Assembly (NCBI GenBank): GCA_021413865.1 | Contig: JAIOPN010000006.1 | Coordinates: 41,409 to 105,408 of the forward strand | Length of the DNA stretch: 64,000 nucleotides | DNA from: Planctomycetota bacterium | GTDB taxonomy: Bacteria > Planctomycetota > Phycisphaerae > Phycisphaerales > Phycisphaeraceae | Direction of reading: 5' to 3' | In this document: positions 2,907 to 39,482 of the stretch, piece by piece | How the letters are laid out: the number at the start of each line of letters is the position of its first letter | How positions within the stretch are numbered: the first letter of the stretch is position 1 | Translations under genes and position numbers: made by a program | The notes under the pieces: generated by a model | The model's input: only the letters and a program-made list of their open reading frames with translations | The model's database searches: none | What the model was told of the DNA's origin: nothing

Positions 2907-3020
2907 CGCCGCCGCAACGTGGCCGTGTCCATCCGCGAATTTCGCCATTTAGCCTTCCCGCCCATTGACGCCCGTGACCGGTCCGGCGATGCTGTCCGCT
3001 GCACGCTTAGGAGACCTTCC

Positions 3021-3638
3021 ATGCACGTTTCGATCCGCGTCGCGTTCGCTCTCACGCTGGCCCTCGCGCTGCTCCCCCTCGGGGCGTGCAGCCAGGGCGT
3101 CAAGGTCGCCGGCTGGCAGGTCCTCGATCCTGAGCCGCCCATCGACGTCAGCACGATCGTGGTCACCCGCACGCACGCCGCCGCGGCGGATGCGGCGTGC
3201 TGCGGCCAGCACGACAAGTGCGACATGACCGACAAATGTGACCATGCCGACAAGTGTGACAAGACCGACAAATGCGACCAGACCGCCGTCAAGCAGACGC
3301 TCAGCATCGAGCCGGGCTCGGGCCACGCCTCGCTGACCGACACCGACGGGCGCGTCTATCCGCTCCAGATCGAGAAAGACCGGCTGGAGCAGCTCGTCGA
3401 GTTTGTCTCGCACCGCACCTGGATGGGTGAGGAACGGCACCCCCCGAAAAGGGAAGCGGCGCCGATGCAATACGAGCTGACCGTCGTGGAGTCGGGCAAG
3501 CCGATGAAGGAAAAGGCGACCTGGTGCGTGCCCTCGCGAAAGCCCCTGCCCGAGGGCTTCGCCCTGCTGACCGACTCCTTCGACAAGGCCGATCGCGTGG
3601 CGCACCCGCTGAGCAAGAGCGTCGATCTGCTGAAATAA
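3021..3638 (+). CDS. Lipoprotein with a DKCD hexapeptide Cys-repeat block
   Basis: AGGAG lies upstream of the ATG at 3021. Lipobox LLPLGAC. Cys block CCGQHDKCDMTDKCDHADKCDKTDKCD has C-x5-C spacing. Confidence 0.7.
   Translation: MHVSIRVAFALTLALALLPLGACSQGVKVAGWQVLDPEPPIDVSTIVVTRTHAAAADAACCGQHDKCDMTDKCDHADKCDKTDKCDQTAVKQTLSIEPGSGHASLTDTDGRVYPLQIEKDRLEQLVEFVSHRTWMGEERHPPKREAAPMQYELTVVESGKPMKEKATWCVPSRKPLPEGFALLTDSFDKADRVAHPLSKSVDLLK
3213..3284 (+). repeat. 4 x 18-bp in-frame tandem repeat (gacaaRtgYgacNNNNNN) encoding DKCDxx
   Basis: Read directly: gacaagtgcgacatgacc / gacaaatgtgaccatgcc / gacaagtgtgacaagacc / gacaaatgcgaccagacc. Confidence 0.85.
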
Positions 3639-5252: not shown

Positions 5253-7874
5253 TTATCGCTCACTCCGCCTTGGCCCCACCGTCGTGTCATAGCTCACGCC
5301 GTCGGGCACGGGCACCGGCGTCTGCACCGTGGTGCCCGTCGTCCCCTCGGTGCGGCGGGCGGTGTCCACGGCGAGGAAGGCGGTGAAGTCGCTCATCAGG
5401 CTGTAGTCGAGCGCGAGCTGGCGGACGGTGTCGGTGAAGCGGTTCACGTCGCCGGCGTTGGCGGGGCCGTAGTCGGCCAGGTCGGCGATCTTGGCGCGGG
5501 CCCAGAGCGAGGGGAGCGCCAGGGGCGGGGAGATGTTGGCGGCGGCGATGAGCGTGCCGTCGGAGCGGCGGACGCGGGTGGTGAACTTTTCGCCGCCCAC
5601 GCGGCCGGTGATCCGCGCCGGGCCTTCGGGGTTGCCGTCGAGCCGGCCGACGACGACGATCGGCCTGCCGACGAAGAGATCGGGGATATGGCGGGGGAAC
5701 ACGTCGGTCACGCGGGCGCCGGGCACCTCGATCTTGATGTCGGTCAGCGCCGGGTGGCTGACGCGCTGGATGTAGGCGGTGGTGGCGACGGCGGGGTCTT
5801 CGTTCAGGCCGATGTACGCCACCGCGCCGCGGCCGGCGCGGGCGACGCCCTCGATCAGGTAGCGGTTCACCGAATTGCCCACGCCGAAGGAGAAGAAGCG
5901 GATGGAGCGGTCGGCCTTGCCGACGGCCTCGATGATCTCCTTCTCATTGCCGATGTAGCCGTCGGTCATCAGGGCGACGAGCCGGCGGCGGTCGCTGCCG
6001 TCGATGCGCTGCATCGCGGCCCTGATGCCTTTGAGCATCTCCGTGCCGCCGCCCGCCTGCGCCTGGTCCACGAAGGCCATCGCGGCGTCGATGTTCTCCG
6101 GCGTCGCGGGGATCGGCTCGGCCGTCATGCACTGCGCCTGGCCGGCGAAGGTGATGACCTGGAACGTGTCGCGCCGGTCGATGGAGGTCAGCGCCGCACG
6201 CATCGCCTGCTTCACGCGCTTGATCGGCTCGCCCATCATGCTGCCCGAGACATCGACAACGAAGACCATCTCCATCGGCTCACGGCTCAGCGAGCCCAGG
6301 TCGGCCGGGGGATAGACCATCATCGTGAAATACCCGCCGCGCGAGTCCTTGTGCGTGAGGAAGTTGGCCTTGATCTTGTCGCCCGCGACGCGCCAGCGGA
6401 AGACGAAGTCTTTGTTCGGGATGGTGTCGCCCGGCTCGATCGTCGCGGTCACGCGTGAGCCGTCGCTGTCGCGCAGGCCCGAGATTTTCGTGCGGTGGCT
6501 TGTGCAGGCCGCTTCCTCGATCTTCACGCCCGCCTCGACGGCGAGGGTGAGGTCGATGTCGTGACCGCTGCGCTCGCGGGGGCGGAGGTAGGAGACCTCG
6601 GTCGTTTGGCCCGAGGAGCCCTTCGCGTTGCGCGGCACGGCCCCGACGCCGGCGCCCCCCGAGCCCGCCGGGTTGTAGCGCGGCCCGACCACCATCGGGA
6701 AGGAGAATTCGTACCAGCCGTCTTCGTAACGCAGCGTCTGGTAGTAGCGGATGTTCACGTCGATCCGCTTGCCCGGCTCGATGTTGGCGACCTTCTGCGT
6801 GAAGATGTTGGGCCTCTCCTGCGTGAGCAGCGAGGCGACGTAGCCCTGGTGCTTCGCCTCCTCGTAAACGCGCTCGGCCTCCTTGCGCTCGCGGATCAGG
6901 CCGCGGATCTTCCGGTCGCCGATCGTCATGATGAACTCGTTCACCGCCGCGTTCTCGGGCAGCGGGAAGACATAGACCGCCTCGATCTTGGAGCTGTAGG
7001 GGTTGTGGAATTTCTGCACGACGTCCACCGCGCCGACGTAGCCGGCCACGGAGGCGTTGACGCTGGTGTGCTCGAGCGGGACGGGGACGGTGCGTTTGCG
7101 GCCTTGGTCGTCGGGGATTTCGGTGACGATCACGCCGCTGCCGGGGGTGGAGTAGTCGTCGCCGCGCGGCGCCGGCGGGGCCTGCTCGGGTTTTACCTCC
7201 GGTTTGACGATGACCCAGACTTCGTCTTCGAGGGCGGGGGGTTGGACGCCGCAGGTGGTGATTTGAGGGGCTTGATGCGGCCCGGCTACGCTGGTGACGG
7301 TGGGGATAGGGAGCGCTGCTTTCATCTGTTCGGCCGTCGCCGTATTTAGATTGATGTTGCCGCTAACACCACCTGCACCGCCCTGCTGTCCCGCCGTGTT
7401 CGTGCGGTATCGCAGATTTTTCTGCAGCCCCGTCATTCTTTTGCTGTTGGCCGGGGTCGCGGGTGAAGGGGTGGAGTCATGTCGGTGGTCACCGAACATG
7501 TCGTCTTCGTCGTCTTCGTTGAGGCCGCGCTTTTCGCTGACGATCTTGCTCCCCGGCGCGCTTGCGCCCGTGTCGTCACTGGGGCGAAGCAGGGGCTTGT
7601 TATCGGTTTTGAGCTCGAAGCCTTTGCCCGCGGCTTCGCCTTTTTCCATGCCGTCAACGCCGCTCTTGCTCCATTCTGCATCGCCGCTGCCGGGGGCGGC
7701 GGTTTGACCGCCGCGTGGCGGGGCGCTCTCAGACGGCAGCGCGTCGGAGTCATACCGATGATTCGAGGTGCGCTCGGGTGGCTTGGATTCGCAGGCGACG
7801 ATTGCCACAGCCATCACGAGGATCATGAGCGAGAGGCACCAGCGCGTGATGCGATTCCGGGTCTGATTTCTCAT
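5253..7874 (-). CDS. VIT domain + von Willebrand factor A domain lipoprotein
   Basis: Lipobox-like AIVAC. VIT-like segment (VQKFHNPYSSKIEAVYVFPLPENAAV...). vWA MIDAS VFVVDVSGSM. Confidence 0.85.
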   Translation of the reverse strand: MRNQTRNRITRWCLSLMILVMAVAIVACESKPPERTSNHRYDSDALPSESAPPRGGQTAAPGSGDAEWSKSGVDGMEKGEAAGKGFELKTDNKPLLRPSDDTGASAPGSKIVSEKRGLNEDDEDDMFGDHRHDSTPSPATPANSKRMTGLQKNLRYRTNTAGQQGGAGGVSGNINLNTATAEQMKAALPIPTVTSVAGPHQAPQITTCGVQPPALEDEVWVIVKPEVKPEQAPPAPRGDDYSTPGSGVIVTEIPDDQGRKRTVPVPLEHTSVNASVAGYVGAVDVVQKFHNPYSSKIEAVYVFPLPENAAVNEFIMTIGDRKIRGLIRERKEAERVYEEAKHQGYVASLLTQERPNIFTQKVANIEPGKRIDVNIRYYQTLRYEDGWYEFSFPMVVGPRYNPAGSGGAGVGAVPRNAKGSSGQTTEVSYLRPRERSGHDIDLTLAVEAGVKIEEAACTSHRTKISGLRDSDGSRVTATIEPGDTIPNKDFVFRWRVAGDKIKANFLTHKDSRGGYFTMMVYPPADLGSLSREPMEMVFVVDVSGSMMGEPIKRVKQAMRAALTSIDRRDTFQVITFAGQAQCMTAEPIPATPENIDAAMAFVDQAQAGGGTEMLKGIRAAMQRIDGSDRRRLVALMTDGYIGNEKEIIEAVGKADRSIRFFSFGVGNSVNRYLIEGVARAGRGAVAYIGLNEDPAVATTAYIQRVSHPALTDIKIEVPGARVTDVFPRHIPDLFVGRPIVVVGRLDGNPEGPARITGRVGGEKFTTRVRRSDGTLIAAANISPPLALPSLWARAKIADLADYGPANAGDVNRFTDTVRQLALDYSLMSDFTAFLAVDTARRTEGTTGTTVQTPVPVPDGVSYDTTVGPRRSER

Positions 7875-8767
7875 GGCGGAGTTCCTTCTTTGATGGAGAG
7901 CACGGCGTCGATGCGGTTGCCGTCGTGGTCGGCGGCGGCGATGAGTTTGGTCTCGAAGAGGGGGGCGGCGTCGCCGTAGGAGACGAGGTGGAGGCTAGCC
8001 ACGCGGACCGGGCCGCGCGGCAGGTTGGCCGCATCGGCGGTGGTGAACATGGCGATGGCAAGCTCGTCGGTGTCGCGGTTCTCGGCGGCGCGGTCGTAAT
8101 AGGGGGGCTTGGCGGCGAAGGCGCGGCCGTCGCCCGACTCGATGCCGACGACCTTCACGACGCCGCCGCGCGCCGTGATGCGGAGCTGGTAGGCGGCGAG
8201 CGGACGGCCGCCCGGGTCGAGCGTGACGTGAACGGTCACGAAGCGCGGCGAGGGGGGAGCGCTCCGGTCCGCGGGTGGTGCGGGTGTGGGACTGGCGGGG
8301 GCTATTTCTTCACGGGTGTCGTGATTGGGCGGGGCGAGGGCGACGGCCTGATAGGCGAGCGCATCGATGGCGGCGGGGTCGGCCTGCTTGTCCTCGGGGG
8401 TGGAGGCCTGCGCCGTCCGCGCCAGTGCGAAGGCGTCGAGGATGGTCACGTCCTGCTGCGCCATCGCCCCCGGCGCCCCCGGCGTCCCCGGACCGCCCGG
8501 AACCGGGCCGCGGGCTGAACGGTCGAAGCCCCGGGTGAAGAGGGCGACGGTGACGCCGATCGCGAGCACCGCAGCGACCGCGGCCCACGGGGCGAGGCGG
8601 AACCGGAAGGCGGGGCCGCGCTCCTGCCGCGTGCCGCCCGCGCGGGCGGCGGCGAGGATGCGCTCGTCGATTTCCGGCGGGACGTCGATCCGGCGGTGGT
8701 GGATGGTGGCGAGCCGTTCGGCCAGCTTCGGCAGGTCTTCGGGCAGGGGTTCGTGCGGTTTCTTCAT
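7871..8767 (-). CDS. Putative anti-sigma factor (single TM, cohesin-like C-terminal domain)
   Basis: Lies downstream of the ECF sigma gene. One TM (WAAVAAVLAIGVTVALF). Overlaps the VIT-vWA start by 4 nt (ATGA). Confidence 0.55.
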   Translation of the reverse strand: MKKPHEPLPEDLPKLAERLATIHHRRIDVPPEIDERILAAARAGGTRQERGPAFRFRLAPWAAVAAVLAIGVTVALFTRGFDRSARGPVPGGPGTPGAPGAMAQQDVTILDAFALARTAQASTPEDKQADPAAIDALAYQAVALAPPNHDTREEIAPASPTPAPPADRSAPPSPRFVTVHVTLDPGGRPLAAYQLRITARGGVVKVVGIESGDGRAFAAKPPYYDRAAENRDTDELAIAMFTTADAANLPRGPVRVASLHLVSYGDAAPLFETKLIAAADHDGNRIDAVLSIKEGTPP

Positions 8768-8910: not shown

Positions 8911-9489
8911 TTACGGCCCCAGCAGGTCCTTCGTGCGCGGGTCGTTGCGCAGCGACGCCAAGGCGTTGTGCAGGCGCGACTTCACCGTGCCCAGGGGGAC
9001 GCCCAGGGCGACGGCGATCTCGGAGAGCTGCAGGTCGTCCACGAAGCGGAGGATGAGCACCTCGCGGTGGCCGGGCGGGAGCGTGGCGAGCAGGGCGGCC
9101 AGGCCATCCTCGCGGTGCTGCTCCTCGAGGGGGGCGGCGGGGAGGGAGTCGAGCGTGTGCTCGTCGTAGGGGCGGAAGCGCTTGGCCTTGCGGAGTGCTT
9201 CGATGGCGAGGTGACGCACGCTGGGGTAGAGCAGCGTCTTCAATTGGCCGGTGAGCGTCAGGCCCGGGGCGCGGCGCATGACGTACATGAACGTCTCCTG
9301 CAGGATGTCCAGGGACATGTCGCGGTCGCCGGTGAAGCGGTACGCCAGCGCGACGACCCAGTCGCGGTAGTTGCGGTAGAGCGTCTCGAAGGCGGCGGCG
9401 GAGTCCTCGCCACCGCCGCTGACGCGGTCGATCAACGCCTGGTCGGCGCGGCGCTGTTGCAACTGCCTATCGGTCGTCACGTCGTCCAT
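8911..9489 (-). CDS. ECF-type RNA polymerase sigma-70 family factor
   Basis: Region 2 (FETLYRNYRDWVVALAYRF) and region 4 HTH (LQLSEIAVALGVPLGTVKSRLHNA). ATG confirmed at 9489. Confidence 0.85.
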   Translation of the reverse strand: MDDVTTDRQLQQRRADQALIDRVSGGGEDSAAAFETLYRNYRDWVVALAYRFTGDRDMSLDILQETFMYVMRRAPGLTLTGQLKTLLYPSVRHLAIEALRKAKRFRPYDEHTLDSLPAAPLEEQHREDGLAALLATLPPGHREVLILRFVDDLQLSEIAVALGVPLGTVKSRLHNALASLRNDPRTKDLLGP

Positions 9490-9527
9490 CGGCGGTCTGT
9501 TCTGGTGGGACGCCTGCCCCACCGGAT

Positions 9528-11144
9528 TCAAAGCGTGAGTGCCCGGTTGATGCGTGCGAGCGTCGAATTTTTTCCCAGCAGCGCGAGCGTGTCCTGGATC
9601 GGCGGGCTGACGGTCGAGCCGGAGACGGCGACGCGGAGCGGTTGGGCGATGTCGCCCATGCCCTTGCCGGCGCGCTGGGCGAAGGCCTCGAGCGCGGCGT
9701 GCAGCGCGGGGCCGTTCCAATCGCTGATCGCGGTGAGCACGGCCGCCAGTTCGCGCAGCATGGCGAGGCCGGCGCCGTTCTCTTTCTTGAGGACCTTCTC
9801 GACGGCCTTGGGGTCGTATTGCACGTCACCGTCGGCGACCACGAAGAACATGCCGTTGATCGAGGGCTCGTCGAGCGTCCGGCTGCGCGGGCGGTAGGCC
9901 TCGGCGAGGATGCGGAGCCTGGCGTCGTCGAACTTCTGCAGATAAACCGGGTGGAACGCGGCCAGGTGCTCGCGCCAGAGCTTGAAGAACTCGTCGGGCG
10001 TGAGCTTGCCGATCGCCTCGGTGTTGAAGGCGAGGAGCTTGGCGCGGTCGAAACGGGCGTTGGACTTGCCGATGCGCTCCAGATCGAAGTTCTTGGCGAG
10101 GAAGTCGAGGTCGAAGCGTTCGAGGTCGTTACCGGGCGACCAGCCGAGGAGGGCGAGGTAATTGAGGATGACCGAGGGGAGGTAGCCGGAGCGGCGGAAG
10201 TCGTGGACGTCGATCTCGGGGAGGATGACGTTGAGCACGCCGGCGACCGCGAGGGCGATCTCGACCGCGTCCGATTTTTTATCCAGGAAAGCGCGGAACG
10301 CCGCGTCGTCCACGCCCGGTGCGGCGGCGAGCTTCCGCTCCTTTGCGGCGGCGCGGGCGACCTTCGCCTTGTCGCGCTTGCTCATCTTCGAGCCGTCGGA
10401 ATTGAAGATCAGCGGCATGTGGGCGTAGCTCGGCCGCTTGATCCCCAGCGCGTCGAACATGGCGACGTGCTTGGGCGTGTTCATCAAATGTTCCTGTGCC
10501 CGCAGCACGTGCGTGACCTTCATGGTCGCGTCGTCCACCACGTTGGCGAAGTGGAACGTTGGTCCGCCGTCGCTCTTGAAGATGACGAAGTCCTCGAGCT
10601 CCGCGGCCTTGATGGTCACGTCGCCGAGCACGAGGTCGTTCACGGTCACGTCGGCATCCGGCATGCGGAACCGCCAGACGAAGGGCTTGCCCGCGGCGAT
10701 GAGCTGATCGGTCTGCGCTTTGGAAAGATTCAGCGATTCCGCGGGGTCGTACTTGTAGGCGCGGCCCTCGGTTTTGGCCTTCGCCTTCGCGGCGGTGAGC
10801 TCCTCGGCGGTCTTGAAGCAGCGGTACGCCCGGCCGATGGCGGCGAGCTGTTCGAGGTATTGCTTGTAGAGGTGGCCGCGCTGGCTCTGAAAATAGGGGC
10901 CGCTGGGCCCGCCGACCTCGGGGCCCTCGTCCCAGTTCAGGCCGAGCCAGCGGAGGTCTTCGAGGATTTTTTTGGTGGACTCGTCGGTGGATCGCGCGGC
11001 GTCGGTGTCCTCGATGCGGAGGATGAACCGTCCGCCGTGCCTGCGGGCGTAGGCCCAGTTGAAGAGCGCGGTGCGGGCGCCGCCGACGTGGAGGTAGCCG
11101 GTCGGGCTGGGGGCGAAGCGGGTGACGACGGTGGAATCAGCCAT
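9528..11144 (-). CDS. gltX: Glutamate--tRNA ligase
   Basis: RFAPSPTGYLHVGGARTALFNW (HIGH) and KMSKR motifs. Confidence 0.9.
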   Translation of the reverse strand: MADSTVVTRFAPSPTGYLHVGGARTALFNWAYARRHGGRFILRIEDTDAARSTDESTKKILEDLRWLGLNWDEGPEVGGPSGPYFQSQRGHLYKQYLEQLAAIGRAYRCFKTAEELTAAKAKAKTEGRAYKYDPAESLNLSKAQTDQLIAAGKPFVWRFRMPDADVTVNDLVLGDVTIKAAELEDFVIFKSDGGPTFHFANVVDDATMKVTHVLRAQEHLMNTPKHVAMFDALGIKRPSYAHMPLIFNSDGSKMSKRDKAKVARAAAKERKLAAAPGVDDAAFRAFLDKKSDAVEIALAVAGVLNVILPEIDVHDFRRSGYLPSVILNYLALLGWSPGNDLERFDLDFLAKNFDLERIGKSNARFDRAKLLAFNTEAIGKLTPDEFFKLWREHLAAFHPVYLQKFDDARLRILAEAYRPRSRTLDEPSINGMFFVVADGDVQYDPKAVEKVLKKENGAGLAMLRELAAVLTAISDWNGPALHAALEAFAQRAGKGMGDIAQPLRVAVSGSTVSPPIQDTLALLGKNSTLARINRALTL

Positions 11145-14145: not shown

Positions 14146-14402
14146 GGGTCACCTCTGGTGGGTAATGGATCGGGGCGGTCAGGATAACAAGGAAGGCGGG
14201 AATAAGGCAGCCCGGGCCGGGGTTGATCCCGCGTGGCCGGTTGAAGCCCGCGCGGGGGATTCGGGAATAAGCTGGCGGCCCCGGCGGATAGTGCTGATGA
14301 GCCCGCCGCGTGAACAAGTTTTATGAACGGGCGCGTGCCCGTTGGCGTATCGGATGAACCAGGGACGCGTCGTCCCAAACCACCTTTCTCAAGGAGTGTT
14401 TT

Positions 14403-14756
14403 ATGAATCGTCAGACCAAGACCCTGCTCGCCGCCGCCGCCATGACCGGCCTGCTCACCGGCGCCGCCCAGCGCACCATGGCCGACACACCCACCTCGGG
14501 CCGCGCGTCGATCTCCAAGACGACGCTCTCCGAGATCGCCGGCCAGAAGTCGCCCAAGACCTTCGAAGAAGGCAAGAGCGGCTGCAGCGGCAAGGACGGG
14601 TGCAACAGCAAGCACGACTGCAAAGGCAAGCATGACTGCAAGGGCAAGAACGACTGCAAAGGCAAGGGCGGTTGCAAGAGCGGGGACAACGGCTGCAAGG
14701 GCAAGAACTCCTGCAAGGGCAAGGGCGGCTGTTCCACCGAAGGCAAGCACGAGTAA
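14403..14756 (+). CDS. Sec-signal Cys-repeat precursor peptide (putative MNIO substrate)
   Basis: AAGGAG lies 8 nt before the ATG. Signal peptide MNRQTKTLLAAAAMTGLLTGAAQRTMA. Core has nine Cys in K-G-K-x-x-C hexads. The gene sits directly upstream of the DUF692 and DUF2063 genes. Confidence 0.8.
   Translation: MNRQTKTLLAAAAMTGLLTGAAQRTMADTPTSGRASISKTTLSEIAGQKSPKTFEEGKSGCSGKDGCNSKHDCKGKHDCKGKNDCKGKGGCKSGDNGCKGKNSCKGKGGCSTEGKHE
14583..14732 (+). repeat. Degenerate 18-bp in-frame repeats (tgcaaRggcaagNNNNNN) encoding the C-x5-C core
   Basis: Read directly. Eight inter-Cys spacers: seven of 5 residues and one of 6. Confidence 0.8.
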
Positions 14757-14784
14757 TCCGCGACACATCCGCGTTTCGCACACG

Positions 14785-14818
14785 CCTTGGACCCGGGAAA
14801 CCGGGTCCTTGGTTTTTC
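14785..14818 (+). terminator. Intra-operon hairpin + T-run (attenuator) between the precursor and MNIO genes
   Basis: ccttGGACCCGGgaaaCCGGGTCCttgg followed by ttttt. Confidence 0.55.
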
Positions 14819-14849
14819 GATCGCAGCATCACCGCCCGCACGGAGCCCC

Positions 14850-15728
14850 ATGCCCGCCAACCGCCACAACGGATTCACCGACCTGGGCATCGGCGTCGGG
14901 CTGCGCGTCCCGCACTACAGCCACATCCTGGGCCGCAAGCCCGCCGTGGACTGGTTCGAGATCATCTCCGAAAACTTCATGATCGACGCCGGCCGACCGC
15001 TGCGCACGCTCGACCTGATCCTCGAGCAATACGCCGTCGTGCAGCACGGTGTCTCGATGTACCTGGGCTCGCCGCGGCTCAACCGCGACCACCTCAAGCG
15101 GCTCAAGCAGCTCGTCCGCCGCACGAAAACGCCGTTCGTCTCGGACCACCTCTGCTGGGGCAGCGTGGATGGCTCCTATTCGCACGACCTCCTGCCGCTG
15201 CCCTACACCTTCGCCGCGGCGCGGCACGTGGCGGCGCGGGTGCGCGAGGCACGGGATATTTTGGAAGTGCCCGTCATCGTCGAAAACGTGTCGAGCTACG
15301 CCGAGTTCCACGCCTCCGAGATGAGCGAGTGGGAGTTCCTTGCCGAAGTCGTCGAGCGCGCCGACTGCGGCATGCTGCTCGACGTGAACAACATCTACGT
15401 CTCCTCGCGCAACCATAATTTTGACCCGTTCGACTACCTCAACGGTGTGCCGCTGGAGCGCGTCGGGCAGGTGCACATCGCCGGGCACACGAAGTTCGAG
15501 CGTTACATCCTCGACACGCACGACCACCCCGTGCTGCCCACGGTCTGGAGGCTGTACGCCCACGTCGTCTCGCGGATCGGTCCCGTGAACACGCTGCTGG
15601 AGTGGGACGCCCGCATCCCGCCGTTCGAGGAGGTCCACCGCGAGGCGCTCAAGGCCCGACGGTTCCTCCGTGATCTGGAAACCCAACGAAGTGAAAACCG
15701 CAAGAGCGCACAAACCGTCACCGCCTGA
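14850..15728 (+). CDS. DUF692 / MNIO family enzyme (MbnB/HvfB/BufB-like)
   Basis: GIGVGLRVPHY, WFEIISENF, HGVSMYLGS, SDHLCW, ENVSSY, DVNNIYV, HIAGH, DTHDHPV, LEWD. GGAG lies before the ATG at 14850. Confidence 0.9.
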   Translation: MPANRHNGFTDLGIGVGLRVPHYSHILGRKPAVDWFEIISENFMIDAGRPLRTLDLILEQYAVVQHGVSMYLGSPRLNRDHLKRLKQLVRRTKTPFVSDHLCWGSVDGSYSHDLLPLPYTFAAARHVAARVREARDILEVPVIVENVSSYAEFHASEMSEWEFLAEVVERADCGMLLDVNNIYVSSRNHNFDPFDYLNGVPLERVGQVHIAGHTKFERYILDTHDHPVLPTVWRLYAHVVSRIGPVNTLLEWDARIPPFEEVHREALKARRFLRDLETQRSENRKSAQTVTA

Positions 15729-16590
15729 CGCCCGCTCGGCCGCCGCGCTGGCGGAGCTGCAGCGGCTGATGTTCTCGGCCGTGTCGCGGCCGCTCACGCC
15801 GGCGCAGCGCATGAACCCGCGCTGGGGCAACGGTCGGCGCACCGCGGACGTCGCCGCCTCCTTCATCAAGCCCAACGACCGGCTCACGTCGTTCGACCGG
15901 CTGGAAATCTACAACCGCCAGTACTGGTTCCGCCTGCTCGACTGCCTCTACGACGACTTCCCCGGCCTGCGCGCGGTGATCGGGGAGAAGAAGTTCACCG
16001 CGATGTCGGAGACGTACCTCACGCGCTACCCATCGAGTTCTTTTACGCTGCGCAACCTCGGCTCGCGGCTGGAGAAGTTCCTCCGCGAAGAGCCGCGCTG
16101 GGCGCGGCCACGCACGGCCCTGGCGCTCGACATGGTCCGCTTCGAATGGGCGAAGATCATCGCCTTCGACGGCGGCGCGAGGCCGATCGTGACGATCGAC
16201 GATCTGCTGGGGCGGGACCCGTCGAGGCTGCGCCTGAAACTCCAGCCATACGTCACGCCGCTGGAACTGGGCTATCCGCTGGATGATTTCTCGATCGCGC
16301 TGCGCCAGCGTGATGACGACGGGCCGCAGGCCGGTAACGCGGCTTCAACCGGGCGTGCGTCGAAGAGCGGCCGCACTGTCCGGCTGCCGCGGCCCGAGCG
16401 CGTTTACTTGGCGGTGCACCGGCTGGAGAACGTGGTGTACTACAAACGGCTCGACGCGAGCGCGTACGCCGTGTTGTGTGCGCTGCGCGGCGGGGCGACG
16501 CTGGCGAAGGCGTCGGAGCGCGCAAACGACGCGGAGTCGCTCCGGCGGTGGTTTGAGATGTGGATGAAACTCGGGTGGTTCTGCCGGTGA
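15670..16590 (+). CDS. DUF2063 family partner protein (MbnC/HvfC/BufC-like)
   Basis: LEIYNRQYWFRLLDCLYDDFPGL is typical of DUF2063. The GTG start (15670 or 15691) overlaps the MNIO gene end. Confidence 0.8.
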   Translation: MIWKPNEVKTARAHKPSPPDARSAAALAELQRLMFSAVSRPLTPAQRMNPRWGNGRRTADVAASFIKPNDRLTSFDRLEIYNRQYWFRLLDCLYDDFPGLRAVIGEKKFTAMSETYLTRYPSSSFTLRNLGSRLEKFLREEPRWARPRTALALDMVRFEWAKIIAFDGGARPIVTIDDLLGRDPSRLRLKLQPYVTPLELGYPLDDFSIALRQRDDDGPQAGNAASTGRASKSGRTVRLPRPERVYLAVHRLENVVYYKRLDASAYAVLCALRGGATLAKASERANDAESLRRWFEMWMKLGWFCR

Positions 16591-16591
16591 G

Positions 16592-16667
16592 TTTTGCGGC
16601 TGTTTAGCGCCGCCCCGAATGGGGCGGGCTTCCGTGTGACCGCGCTAAGCCGCAAGCGGCAAAAAAC
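16592..16667. terminator. Compound palindrome between convergent genes
   Basis: Outer stem GCGGC-tgt-TTAGCGC / GCGCTAA-GCCGC encloses the hairpin CGCCCCGAATGGGGCG. T-rich and A-rich flanks. Confidence 0.5.
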
Positions 16668-16668
16668 A

Positions 16669-17406
16669 TCAATCCCCTTTTGGAGACCAACCCAATAAAT
16701 CGAGGGCCCGGCGCTGGATGTAGTGGCGGCCTTCCGCATCGCCCGAGGCCATGATGATGTGGAAGCCCGGGTGGTCGCAGGCGAGGGCGGCGAGGAAGAG
16801 GCGACGGGTATCGTTGGGGGCGAGGAAGGGGGTTGTTTTCAGTTCGCCGGCATCGCGTGCCTTGGCGTAGTCGGCCTCGTTGCGTGGGGCGAAGAGGCGG
16901 AGTGAGACGAAGGTGCTGTGCGGGCTGTGCTGCGCGCCGGCGCGCATGGTGAGTTCGCCGGTCTGCTTGCTCACACCGTAGGCGTGGAACGCGTCGGGCG
17001 GGAGCGTTTCATCGAACGGCACGGGTCGCATCTCGGGGGACCAGACGCTGATCGTGCTCGCGTAAACGAATTTTTTCACGCCGGCGGCGAGGCCGTGCAG
17101 GATGAAGCCGAACCAGCCGGCGGTGTTTACGGCGAACGCGGGGCCGATCGCCTTGATGTCTTTCCGCGGGCCGGAGGTGCCCATCTGGGTGACGTCGGTC
17201 GCGCCCATCGCCAGGTACAGGATCGCGTCGATGCCGCGCACCGCCGACGTGATCGCCGCCTCGTCGGTCACGTCGGCGACGATCGTCTGGGCCTCGCGCC
17301 CCGGGACCGGACGGTGGTCGAAGAACTTGCAGGTGTGCTCTTTTTCAAGGCCCGGGATCACGATCGACGCCACATAACCCGCCGCGCCGACGACTAGGAC
17401 GTTCAT
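16669..17406 (-). CDS. NAD-dependent epimerase/dehydratase family protein
   Basis: MNVLVVGAAGYVAS (GxxGxxG). ATG confirmed at 17406. Confidence 0.75.
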   Translation of the reverse strand: MNVLVVGAAGYVASIVIPGLEKEHTCKFFDHRPVPGREAQTIVADVTDEAAITSAVRGIDAILYLAMGATDVTQMGTSGPRKDIKAIGPAFAVNTAGWFGFILHGLAAGVKKFVYASTISVWSPEMRPVPFDETLPPDAFHAYGVSKQTGELTMRAGAQHSPHSTFVSLRLFAPRNEADYAKARDAGELKTTPFLAPNDTRRLFLAALACDHPGFHIIMASGDAEGRHYIQRRALDLLGWSPKGD

Positions 17407-39395: not shown

Positions 39396-39482
39396 CGGAG
39401 AGGGAGGGATTCGAACCCTCGGTACGGTTACCCGTACACACGATTTCCAGTCGTGTTCCTTCAGCCGCTCGGACACCTCTCC
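39396..39482 (-). tRNA. tRNA-Ser (anticodon GGA), long variable arm, CCA not encoded
   Basis: Hand-folded: GGAGAGG acceptor, anticodon loop CT-GGA-AA, variable arm TGTACGGGTAACCGTAC, T-arm GAGGGTTCGAATCCCTC. Confidence 0.9.

Follow-up and report, generated by a model that had tools for sequence, protein, structure and literature searches.

A probable buf2ABC-type bufferin cluster with a nine-cysteine precursor in a genome of the Planctomycetota

The stretch of DNA analysed here, referred to as the window in the following, comprises 64,000 nucleotides from a Planctomycetota bacterium (Phycisphaeraceae, contig JAIOPN010000006.1) and carries three consecutive genes encoding a small cysteine-rich precursor peptide, a multinuclear non-heme iron oxidase (MNIO, DUF692) and a DUF2063-family partner protein (Table 1). 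A preliminary description, made from the DNA letters, had interpreted them as a cluster for a peptide made on ribosomes and modified after translation (RiPP), in which a precursor with a signal peptide gives rise to a periplasmic metal-binding product. The profile scores of the proteins and the predicted fold of the partner support this cluster type, and a periplasmic metal-binding product remains the best explanation for it.

The open reading frame (ORF) of the precursor and its Shine-Dalgarno sequence were found where the preliminary description had placed them. The N-terminus consists of MNRQTK followed by TLLAAAAMTGLLTGAA and QRTMA, i.e. a basic n-region, then a hydrophobic core, with small residues at -3/-1, and was judged by eye to be organised like a Sec signal peptide, as described before. 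In the alignments, the residues A12, A13, G16 and G20 of this region are (nearly) invariant across the homologues. The C-terminal half of the peptide is rich in lysine and glycine. Cysteines occupy the residues 61, 67, 73, 79, 85, 91, 98, 104 and 110, resulting in spacings of 5, 5, 5, 5, 5, 6, 5 and 5 residues, so that the described number of nine holds, while the uniform C-x5-C spacing is broken by a single x6. Lysine follows the cysteine at six of the nine positions and precedes it at none. The hexad period is also visible at the DNA level, where 8.4 copies of an 18-nt unit repeat in tandem with 72% matches, and the GC content at third codon positions (0.90) equals that of the neighbouring genes. 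The precursor matched no Pfam family, its exact sequence had no record in the public gene index, and a tblastn search with it against plasmids matched nothing.

The second gene encodes a protein which matched Pfam PF05114 (MbnB_TglH_ChrH) with 349.5 bits. Among the NCBIfam models, the BufB equivalog NF050167 was matched with 339.6 bits and thus above its cut-off of 310, while the second-best model HvfB (242.5 bits, cut-off 360) and MbnB (37.5 bits, cut-off 325) stayed below their cut-offs, as did ApyH and ChrH. A GGAG motif lies ahead of the ATG at 14850. As an alternative start, the TTG at 14787 was rejected, since the resulting extension would hold the terminator hairpin and the homologues align from residue 1 of the shorter form. 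The enzyme aligns to the solved MNIO structure PDB 3BWW (E=1.3e-47), and all shared motif blocks are kept, namely HG-S, SDHL, VEN, LDVNNIY, HIAGH, DTH and LLE-x-D, which we take to be the holders of the iron ligands known from published MNIO structures.

For the third gene, PF09836 was matched with 52.8 bits (cut-off 27.2). The described order of a DUF692 gene and an overlapping DUF2063 gene is upheld, given the GTG starts listed in Table 1. A start at ATG 15769, where the public call of a 100% identical partner begins (Logan contig, P0122, 273 aa), was rejected, since it would drop the block SAAALAELQRL (residues 23-33), which lies upstream of this ATG and is conserved in all partner homologues. 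Because of this conservation, the true start is probably one of the two GTG codons overlapping the 3' end of the MNIO gene. The sole NCBIfam match of the partner was HvfC with 29.4 bits at a cut-off of 142, and its sequence gave no match against the PDB. A model calculated with AlphaFold2 (AF2) from 41 sequences reached a predicted local distance difference test (pLDDT) value of 87. The best PDB folds for this model (Foldseek) were TglI (8hi7, 8hci; E=3e-5) and NGO1945 (3dee; E=4.9e-5, target TM 0.69), each with a probability of 1.00. Both are known MNIO partners, and based on these matches the modelled partner is of PME-type 1 as defined in PMC12452194.

Table 1. Features of the gene cluster and its surroundings, with positions in the window
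Feature	Position	Strand	Remarks
Two copies of GGAATAAG, candidate -35 elements of an ECF-sigma-type (extracytoplasmic function) promoter	14199 and 14264 (14199..14270)	+	low confidence
Shine-Dalgarno sequence AAGGAG	14391..14396	+	6 nt ahead of the precursor ATG; read from sequence
bufA2-like precursor gene	14403..14756	+	ORF, 117 aa plus stop
Predicted Sec signal peptide, residues 1-27, MNRQTKTLLAAAAMTGLLTGAAQRTMA	14403..14483	+	judged by eye; cleavage site putative
Extra N-terminal 3-Cys half-unit C61, C67, C73, GCSGKDGCNSKHDC	14583..14621	+	absent from canonical 6-Cys relatives
Canonical 6-Cys Buf2-type domain H77-C110, HDCKGKNDCKGKGGCKSGDNGCKGKNSCKGKGGC	14631..14732	+	invariant in alignments
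Intrinsic-terminator-like hairpin plus T-run	14789..14818	+	8 bp, 7 G-C, GAAA loop
bufB-like MNIO (DUF692) gene	14850..15728	+	292 aa; PF05114, NCBIfam BufB
bufC-like partner gene (DUF2063 + RRE-like C-terminal domain, PME-type 1)	15670..16590	+	PF09836; start GTG 15670 or 15691
Palindrome with inner GC hairpin	16599..16653	.	within the 78 nt separating two convergent genes; bidirectional terminator likely

When 185,579 species genomes were scanned with the MNIO, 568 relatives were obtained, of which the best 80 were kept for all locus counts. These are 66-77% identical to the window enzyme and belong to Acidobacteriota, Verrucomicrobiota, Planctomycetota and others; the closest ones, with at most 77% identity, are metagenome-assembled genomes of Verrucomicrobiota and Planctomycetota. 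A precursor homologue with the 6-Cys domain was determined by tblastn 5' of the MNIO gene in 78 of the 80 loci, which is the conservation beside DUF692 genes that the preliminary description had proposed to look for, and in 73 an ORF scan found the cysteine-rich ORF 5' of the MNIO gene at a distance of at most 1.5 kb. Downstream, a DUF2063 homologue is present in all 80. The bufA-bufB-bufC order of the window is the same in 78 relatives, and of the 76 loci whose sequence extends far enough, 55 continue with a DoxX gene and 21 have none. In a search of 5.8 billion proteins, the precursor had homologues in more than 7,000 clusters at E<=0.01, a number that is a lower bound. Since there are thousands of homologues, with the same position beside MNIO genes, the precursor ORF is no product of chance.

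The BufA2 family periplasmic bufferin-type metallophore (NF050166) was the sole specific NCBIfam match of the precursor, with 25.4 bits (E=1.2e-5) at a curated cut-off of 60 bits; profile positions 37-65 align without gaps to residues 83-111. In alignments of 21 and 50 sequences, C79, C85, C91, C98, C104, C110, N83, N102 and the GG pairs are invariant, and the family core at residues 77-110 reads H-x-C-K-G-x-N-x-C-K-G-x-G-G-C-x4-N-G-C-x-G-x-N-x-C-K-G-K-G-G-C. This 6-Cys domain occurs singly in many family members and doubled (12 Cys) in many others. As judged from the alignments, the hexad periodicity of the cysteines is the ordinary internal periodicity of the domain, and the nine cysteines are composed of the canonical domain (C79-C110) and an N-terminal 3-Cys half-unit (C61-C73).

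These features correspond to the published description of Buf2 (BUF_6/12Cys) peptides, which are precursors with a signal peptide and 6 or 12 conserved cysteines, encoded 5' of MNIO and DUF2063 genes (PMC11626156, PMC12452194). The six conserved cysteines of the Buf2 framework are present, and the other three are an add-on. Buf_6-12Cys peptides have been tabulated in Opitutus terrae, Koribacter versatilis, Acidobacterium, Pirellula and Planctopirus (PMC12452194 Table S2), and the accession numbers in this table put them beside MNIO/DUF2063 genes, with the exception of Pirellula. The phyla of these organisms are those of the relatives retrieved here. In another survey, the precursors of MNIO-PME1 pairs were sorted into a DUF2282, a Lys-Cys (EGKCG) and a Cys-Lys group, BufA2 being placed in the last (PMC13097082); the 5-mers HNDCK and NACKG, called common there, are present among the homologues retrieved. 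From these comparisons we conclude that the precursor is very probably a member of the Buf2/Cys-Lys family rather than of a new class.

Altogether, the window very probably holds a buf2ABC-type bufferin cluster, also known as a Cys-Lys captophorin cluster, and the iron enzyme probably turns cysteines of an exported cysteine-rich peptide into copper-binding rings, by analogy to the characterized systems. The BufA2-like precursor of 117 aa would be made with its Sec signal peptide and bound in the cytoplasm, before export, by a complex of the BufB-like multi-iron MNIO and the BufC-like DUF2063/RRE partner. This complex would oxidise cysteines within the C-K-G repeats, yielding 5-thiooxazoles in a four-electron reaction that changes the mass by about -4 Da per cysteine. 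After export by the Sec system and removal of the first ~27 residues by signal peptidase, a periplasmic product of ~90 residues would bind copper via the thiooxazoles and buffer copper excess. For the buf2 product of Caulobacter, four cysteine modifications of -4 Da and a disulfide as well as protection against copper have been reported, the first and the last cysteine in Buf2 being unmodified and disulfide-linked (PMC11626156). Following this pattern, C85, C91, C98 and C104 would be modified in the window peptide, while the outer cysteines of the 6-Cys domain may form a disulfide. To the gene anatomy, the family relationships, the conserved synteny and the modelled partner fold determined here, this scheme adds the chemistry, the modified cysteines, the export and the copper binding by inference from the work on Caulobacter Buf1/Buf2 and on fontiphorin (PMC11626156, PMC13097082). 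The oxazolone/thioamide chemistry that the preliminary description had quoted for HvfA has since been revised to 5-thiooxazole (PMC13097082).

The closest described counterpart is buf2ABC of Caulobacter vibrioides (BufA2/BufB2/BufC2; PMC11626156, PMC12452194). Both clusters have the order precursor-MNIO-DUF2063, and both precursors comprise a Sec-type signal peptide and a 6-Cys domain; in addition, the window MNIO passes the BufB model, and the only specific match of the precursor is the BufA2 model. Neither cluster has a DoxX gene (bufD). The preliminary description had correctly stated that no DoxX gene is attached, and tblastn of a relative's DoxX against the 64-kb window gave no match. This absence does not support an undescribed class, since the Caulobacter cluster has the same published layout (PMC11626156). 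Compared to Caulobacter, the window peptide has nine cysteines and not six, owing to the N-terminal 3-Cys half-unit, and its source is one of the Planctomycetota and not of the Pseudomonadota. With the Cys-Lys captophorins (Gadgil et al. 2026, PMC13097082) the window shares the multiple C-K dyads and the pair of MNIO and PME1; that survey was centred on Pseudomonadota.

Several observations weigh against the assignment to buf2ABC. The BufA2 score of the precursor lies below the cut-off, and the match spans just the last five cysteines. The profile search against the described bufferin families, proposed in the preliminary description, thus returned BufA2 and BufB, but not cleanly in the case of the precursor. 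The likeness to the BufA2 peptides of Caulobacter and Opitutus is based on the NCBIfam model and the published descriptions, and the span from Cys I to Cys VI in Caulobacter BufA2 (Cys24-Cys50 in the published numbering) is shorter and tighter than in the window peptide. An AF2 prediction of the precursor from the alignment of 50 sequences gave no confident fold (pLDDT 46.8, predicted template modelling score 0.16). Moreover, neither copper genes nor DoxX nor an adjacent sigma/anti-sigma pair were found in the window neighbourhood of the cluster, where the flanking genes encode a zinc-dependent dehydrogenase, an epimerase, a PhyH dioxygenase and a radical SAM protein and offer no copper context. 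The last point concerns the active site. In the alignment, the aspartate of the LLE-x-D block (Asp253) falls on the residue reported as catalytic base of FonB. The position after it is occupied by Phe in Lys-Cys enzymes, while Cys-Lys enzymes have Asp there (BufB2-Asp251; FonB-Phe250 position) (PMC13097082). The window enzyme reads LLEWDA and has Ala254 at this site instead of the Asp found in the Caulobacter enzyme and typical of Cys-Lys enzymes. Among the 80 MNIO relatives, EWDD was found in 72 and EWDA in 8, the latter mostly from Phycisphaerae.

The low BufA2 score can be explained by the model. It was matched by all 21 aligned homologues (best E 1.1e-25), and its cut-off was passed by 2 of 10 homologues scored singly, both of them 12-Cys peptides (P0057 with 66.7 bits and P0103 with 64.6 bits). 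The canonical 6-Cys peptides of Chthoniobacter flavus and of Acidobacteriota, Opitutales and Planctomycetota loci reach just 34-50 bits. Since these also fall short, the low value for the window peptide reflects a model fitted to a more restricted set of sequences and is no evidence for another family. Of 13 precursors from the Acidobacteriota/Verrucomicrobiota/Planctomycetota branch scored singly, 11 showed 25-50 bits and one more 58.5 bits (including L002, L005, L027, L072 and L076); the 60-bit cut-off thus misses most of the branch precursors sampled. Therefore, NCBI names them 'hypothetical protein', and the cluster-member names for ten precursor homologues read 'hypothetical protein' throughout.

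The extra half-unit raises the question of a functionally distinct Buf2 sub-type. In this case, the three additional cysteines together with Ala254 would lead to more heterocycles (up to six or seven) or to another metal stoichiometry or selectivity than in the Buf2 peptides with four thiooxazoles. The unit C61-C73 is spaced C-x5-C-x5-C like either half of the 6-Cys domain, lysine follows C73 as at modified sites, and the unit was also found in a large metagenomic sub-group and in the loci L009 and L072. Among the best 120 precursor matches, 19 have nine contiguous cysteines and 7 more show a split of 2+7, and members with 8, 10, 14 and 15 cysteines occur as well. Together, the 6-, 9-, 12- and 15-Cys members suggest modular 3-Cys units. 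However, this list is biased to the 9-Cys query, and some of the 19 proteins are of a 6+3 and not a 3+6 layout. In the 80 genomes selected by the MNIO, six cysteines are the rule, and the N-terminal extension occurs in few (L009, L072). Furthermore, the residue after C61 is Ser and that after C67 is Asn, instead of Lys. A link between EWDA and the extra cysteines was considered and rejected. Of the relatives with the extension, those checked (two with nine and one with eight core cysteines) all read EWDD, and 7 of the 8 EWDA relatives have 6-Cys peptides. The Ala254 variant and the extra cysteines do not co-vary. Altogether, such a sub-type is rather unlikely. Equally doubtful is its broader form, according to which the Buf2 family is built from 3-Cys half-units to give 6, 9, 12 or 15 cysteines, and the 3+6 layout is a distinct conserved sub-type, mainly of Verrucomicrobiota-like bacteria, with more than four thiooxazoles and another copper capacity or metal preference, paired in the window with the Ala254 MNIO.

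In the three long-contig relatives with the N-terminal extension, MNIO and DUF2063 genes adjoin and the A-B-C order is kept. In two of them, L081 (8713-9988; nine core cysteines) and L083 (8844-10143; eight), the cluster goes on with genes for DoxX, for an ECF sigma factor and for a DUF3379 protein that may be an anti-sigma factor. According to a published survey, sigma/anti-sigma genes occur in Buf1 and not in Buf2 clusters.

For the buf2ABC-type assignment, all this amounts to one more bufferin-2-type cluster of a known kind from a poorly sampled lineage, with modest architectural variation. The gap left by the BufA2 cut-off and the 3-Cys half-units do not alter the understanding of the bufferin system, although the label '6/12-Cys' hides 9- and 15-Cys members made of such half-units. 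If the 9-Cys form binds more copper, these peptides would provide a handy natural series for the stoichiometry of thiooxazole metallophores.

The possibility raised in the preliminary description was a new precursor class, in which a (KGKxxC)9 core unrelated to those of the bufferins, including the 6/12-Cys type, and of Hvf recruited the MNIO/DUF2063 pair, possibly for another product. Apart from the BufA2 score below the cut-off, the missing Pfam family, the label 'hypothetical protein' of the relatives in NCBI sources, the nine cysteines (neither 6 nor 12) and the EWDA of the MNIO would fit this view. Against it, the 34 C-terminal residues match the 6-Cys domain of the relatives at every conserved position, and the scores of 34-50 bits for canonical peptides of Chthoniobacter, Acidobacteriota and Opitutales reveal a cut-off that misses the whole branch, while homologues do attain 64-67 bits. 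The published survey also places Buf_6-12Cys peptides in these phyla (PMC12452194). Because of the 6-Cys domain, the BufA2 match, the MNIO above the BufB cut-off and the published layout without DoxX, the claim of an undescribed class is unsupported; it is largely refuted and must be considered improbable.

Still less probable is that the peptide is secreted without modification, as a Cys/Lys/Gly-rich protein of a metallothionein-like or structural kind, and is merely a neighbour of an MNIO operon. A hairpin with a T-run parts its gene from the MNIO gene, and stand-alone Buf2 genes have been reported (PMC12452194). Nevertheless, the order of peptide, MNIO and DUF2063 in 78 of 80 loci from at least three phyla speaks against this view, and relatives show the hairpin between the genes as well, in keeping with attenuation inside a single operon.

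An Hvf/oxazolin-type (EGKCG, Lys-Cys) or methanobactin-type system shares the enzyme superfamily and the partner type, with HvfB as second-best MNIO model and HvfC as sole NCBIfam match of the partner, but is refuted by the scores below the HvfB, HvfC and MbnB cut-offs, by a precursor that has neither a K-C dyad nor the EGKCG motif, by Ala in place of the Phe of Lys-Cys MNIOs (ERDF in 3BWW), and by the absence of an MbnC gene and of transporter genes. The oxazolin, fontiphorin and gonophorin systems (HvfABC, FonABC, NgoABC) have in common with the window the MNIO clade, the partner fold (3DEE), the signal peptide and repeated cysteine motifs, and their 5-thiooxazole chemistry and copper link are what would be expected here by analogy. 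They differ in their K-C-G motifs within 5-mer or 17-mer repeats, compared to C-K-G hexads in the window, and in the DoxX gene that is usually present. Bufferin 1 (DUF2282, BufA1BCD/gig operon) shares the enzyme pair and the proposed function; it has four cysteines, two of which are modified, and is usually associated with DoxX and SigF/NrsF. Its signature DUF2282 gave no Pfam match in the window precursor at E<=1. Methanobactin (MbnABC) likewise depends on an MNIO, which turns cysteines of a ribosomally made peptide into a copper ligand, but its product is an oxazolone/thioamide, its leader is cleaved, the peptide is secreted for copper uptake, and its partner is MbnC and not a DUF2063 protein.

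Within the assigned buf2ABC-type cluster, the hairpin and T-run after the precursor gene, already seen in the preliminary description, were found again as GGACCCGG-GAAA-CCGGGTCC at 14789-14808 followed by TTGGTTTTTC, between the precursor and MNIO genes. A crude scan for perfect stems detected a comparable GC-rich hairpin with a T-rich tail between the two genes in 30 of 78 relatives. The hairpin of the window is probably a conserved partial terminator/attenuator or mRNA stabiliser and no operon boundary, and its position probably results in more precursor than enzyme transcript. The strong palindrome described at the end of the cluster is present, but only moderate: its two 12-nt arms (16599-16610 and 16642-16653) show 83% complementarity, a GC hairpin of 7 bp lies inside at 16610-16627, and the z-score of folding is about -2 for either strand. 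It likely acts as a bidirectional terminator, the convergent minus-strand epimerase gene ending at 16669. An Rfam search of the whole window gave a single match, one tRNA at 39396-39482 on the minus strand.

Upstream of the precursor, a scan for sigma-70 promoters found none. The motif GGAATAA(A)-N13-14-(C)GTC(T/C) was observed upstream of the precursor in 13 of the 80 related loci (L003, L007, L008, L011, L039, L048, L063, L067, L072, L074, L077, L078 and L079), with a density of 0.315 per kb compared to a background of 0.0185 per kb, i.e. about 17-fold. In the window, three of the five plus-strand GGAATAA copies in the 64 kb (14032, 14199 and 14264) lie at most 370 nt upstream of the precursor start; the copies in the window have no clean GTC -10 element. 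The motif resembles an ECF-sigma promoter, a resemblance in which we place low confidence. About 5 kb upstream of the cluster, an ECF-type sigma factor is encoded at 8911-9720 on the minus strand, which is 30% identical to the sigma factor of L081. It is followed on the same strand by the gene for a possible anti-sigma factor of 298 aa, which has a single hydrophobic segment (7871-8767), and by a gene for an 873-aa protein (5253-7874).

A second hexad cysteine repeat was found elsewhere in the window. The gene at 2919-3638 on the plus strand, with ATG 3021 as likely start, encodes a predicted lipoprotein (MHVSIRVAFALTLALALLPLGAC, lipobox LGAC), which carries the repeat CCGQHDKCDMTDKCDHADKCDKTDKCDQT at 3198-3275. 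In this repeat, the cysteines stand in D-K-C, i.e. a Lys-Cys arrangement. The protein has no Pfam family and no MNIO gene beside it, and as a lipoprotein it may bind metal or else serve as a stand-alone substrate for an MNIO.

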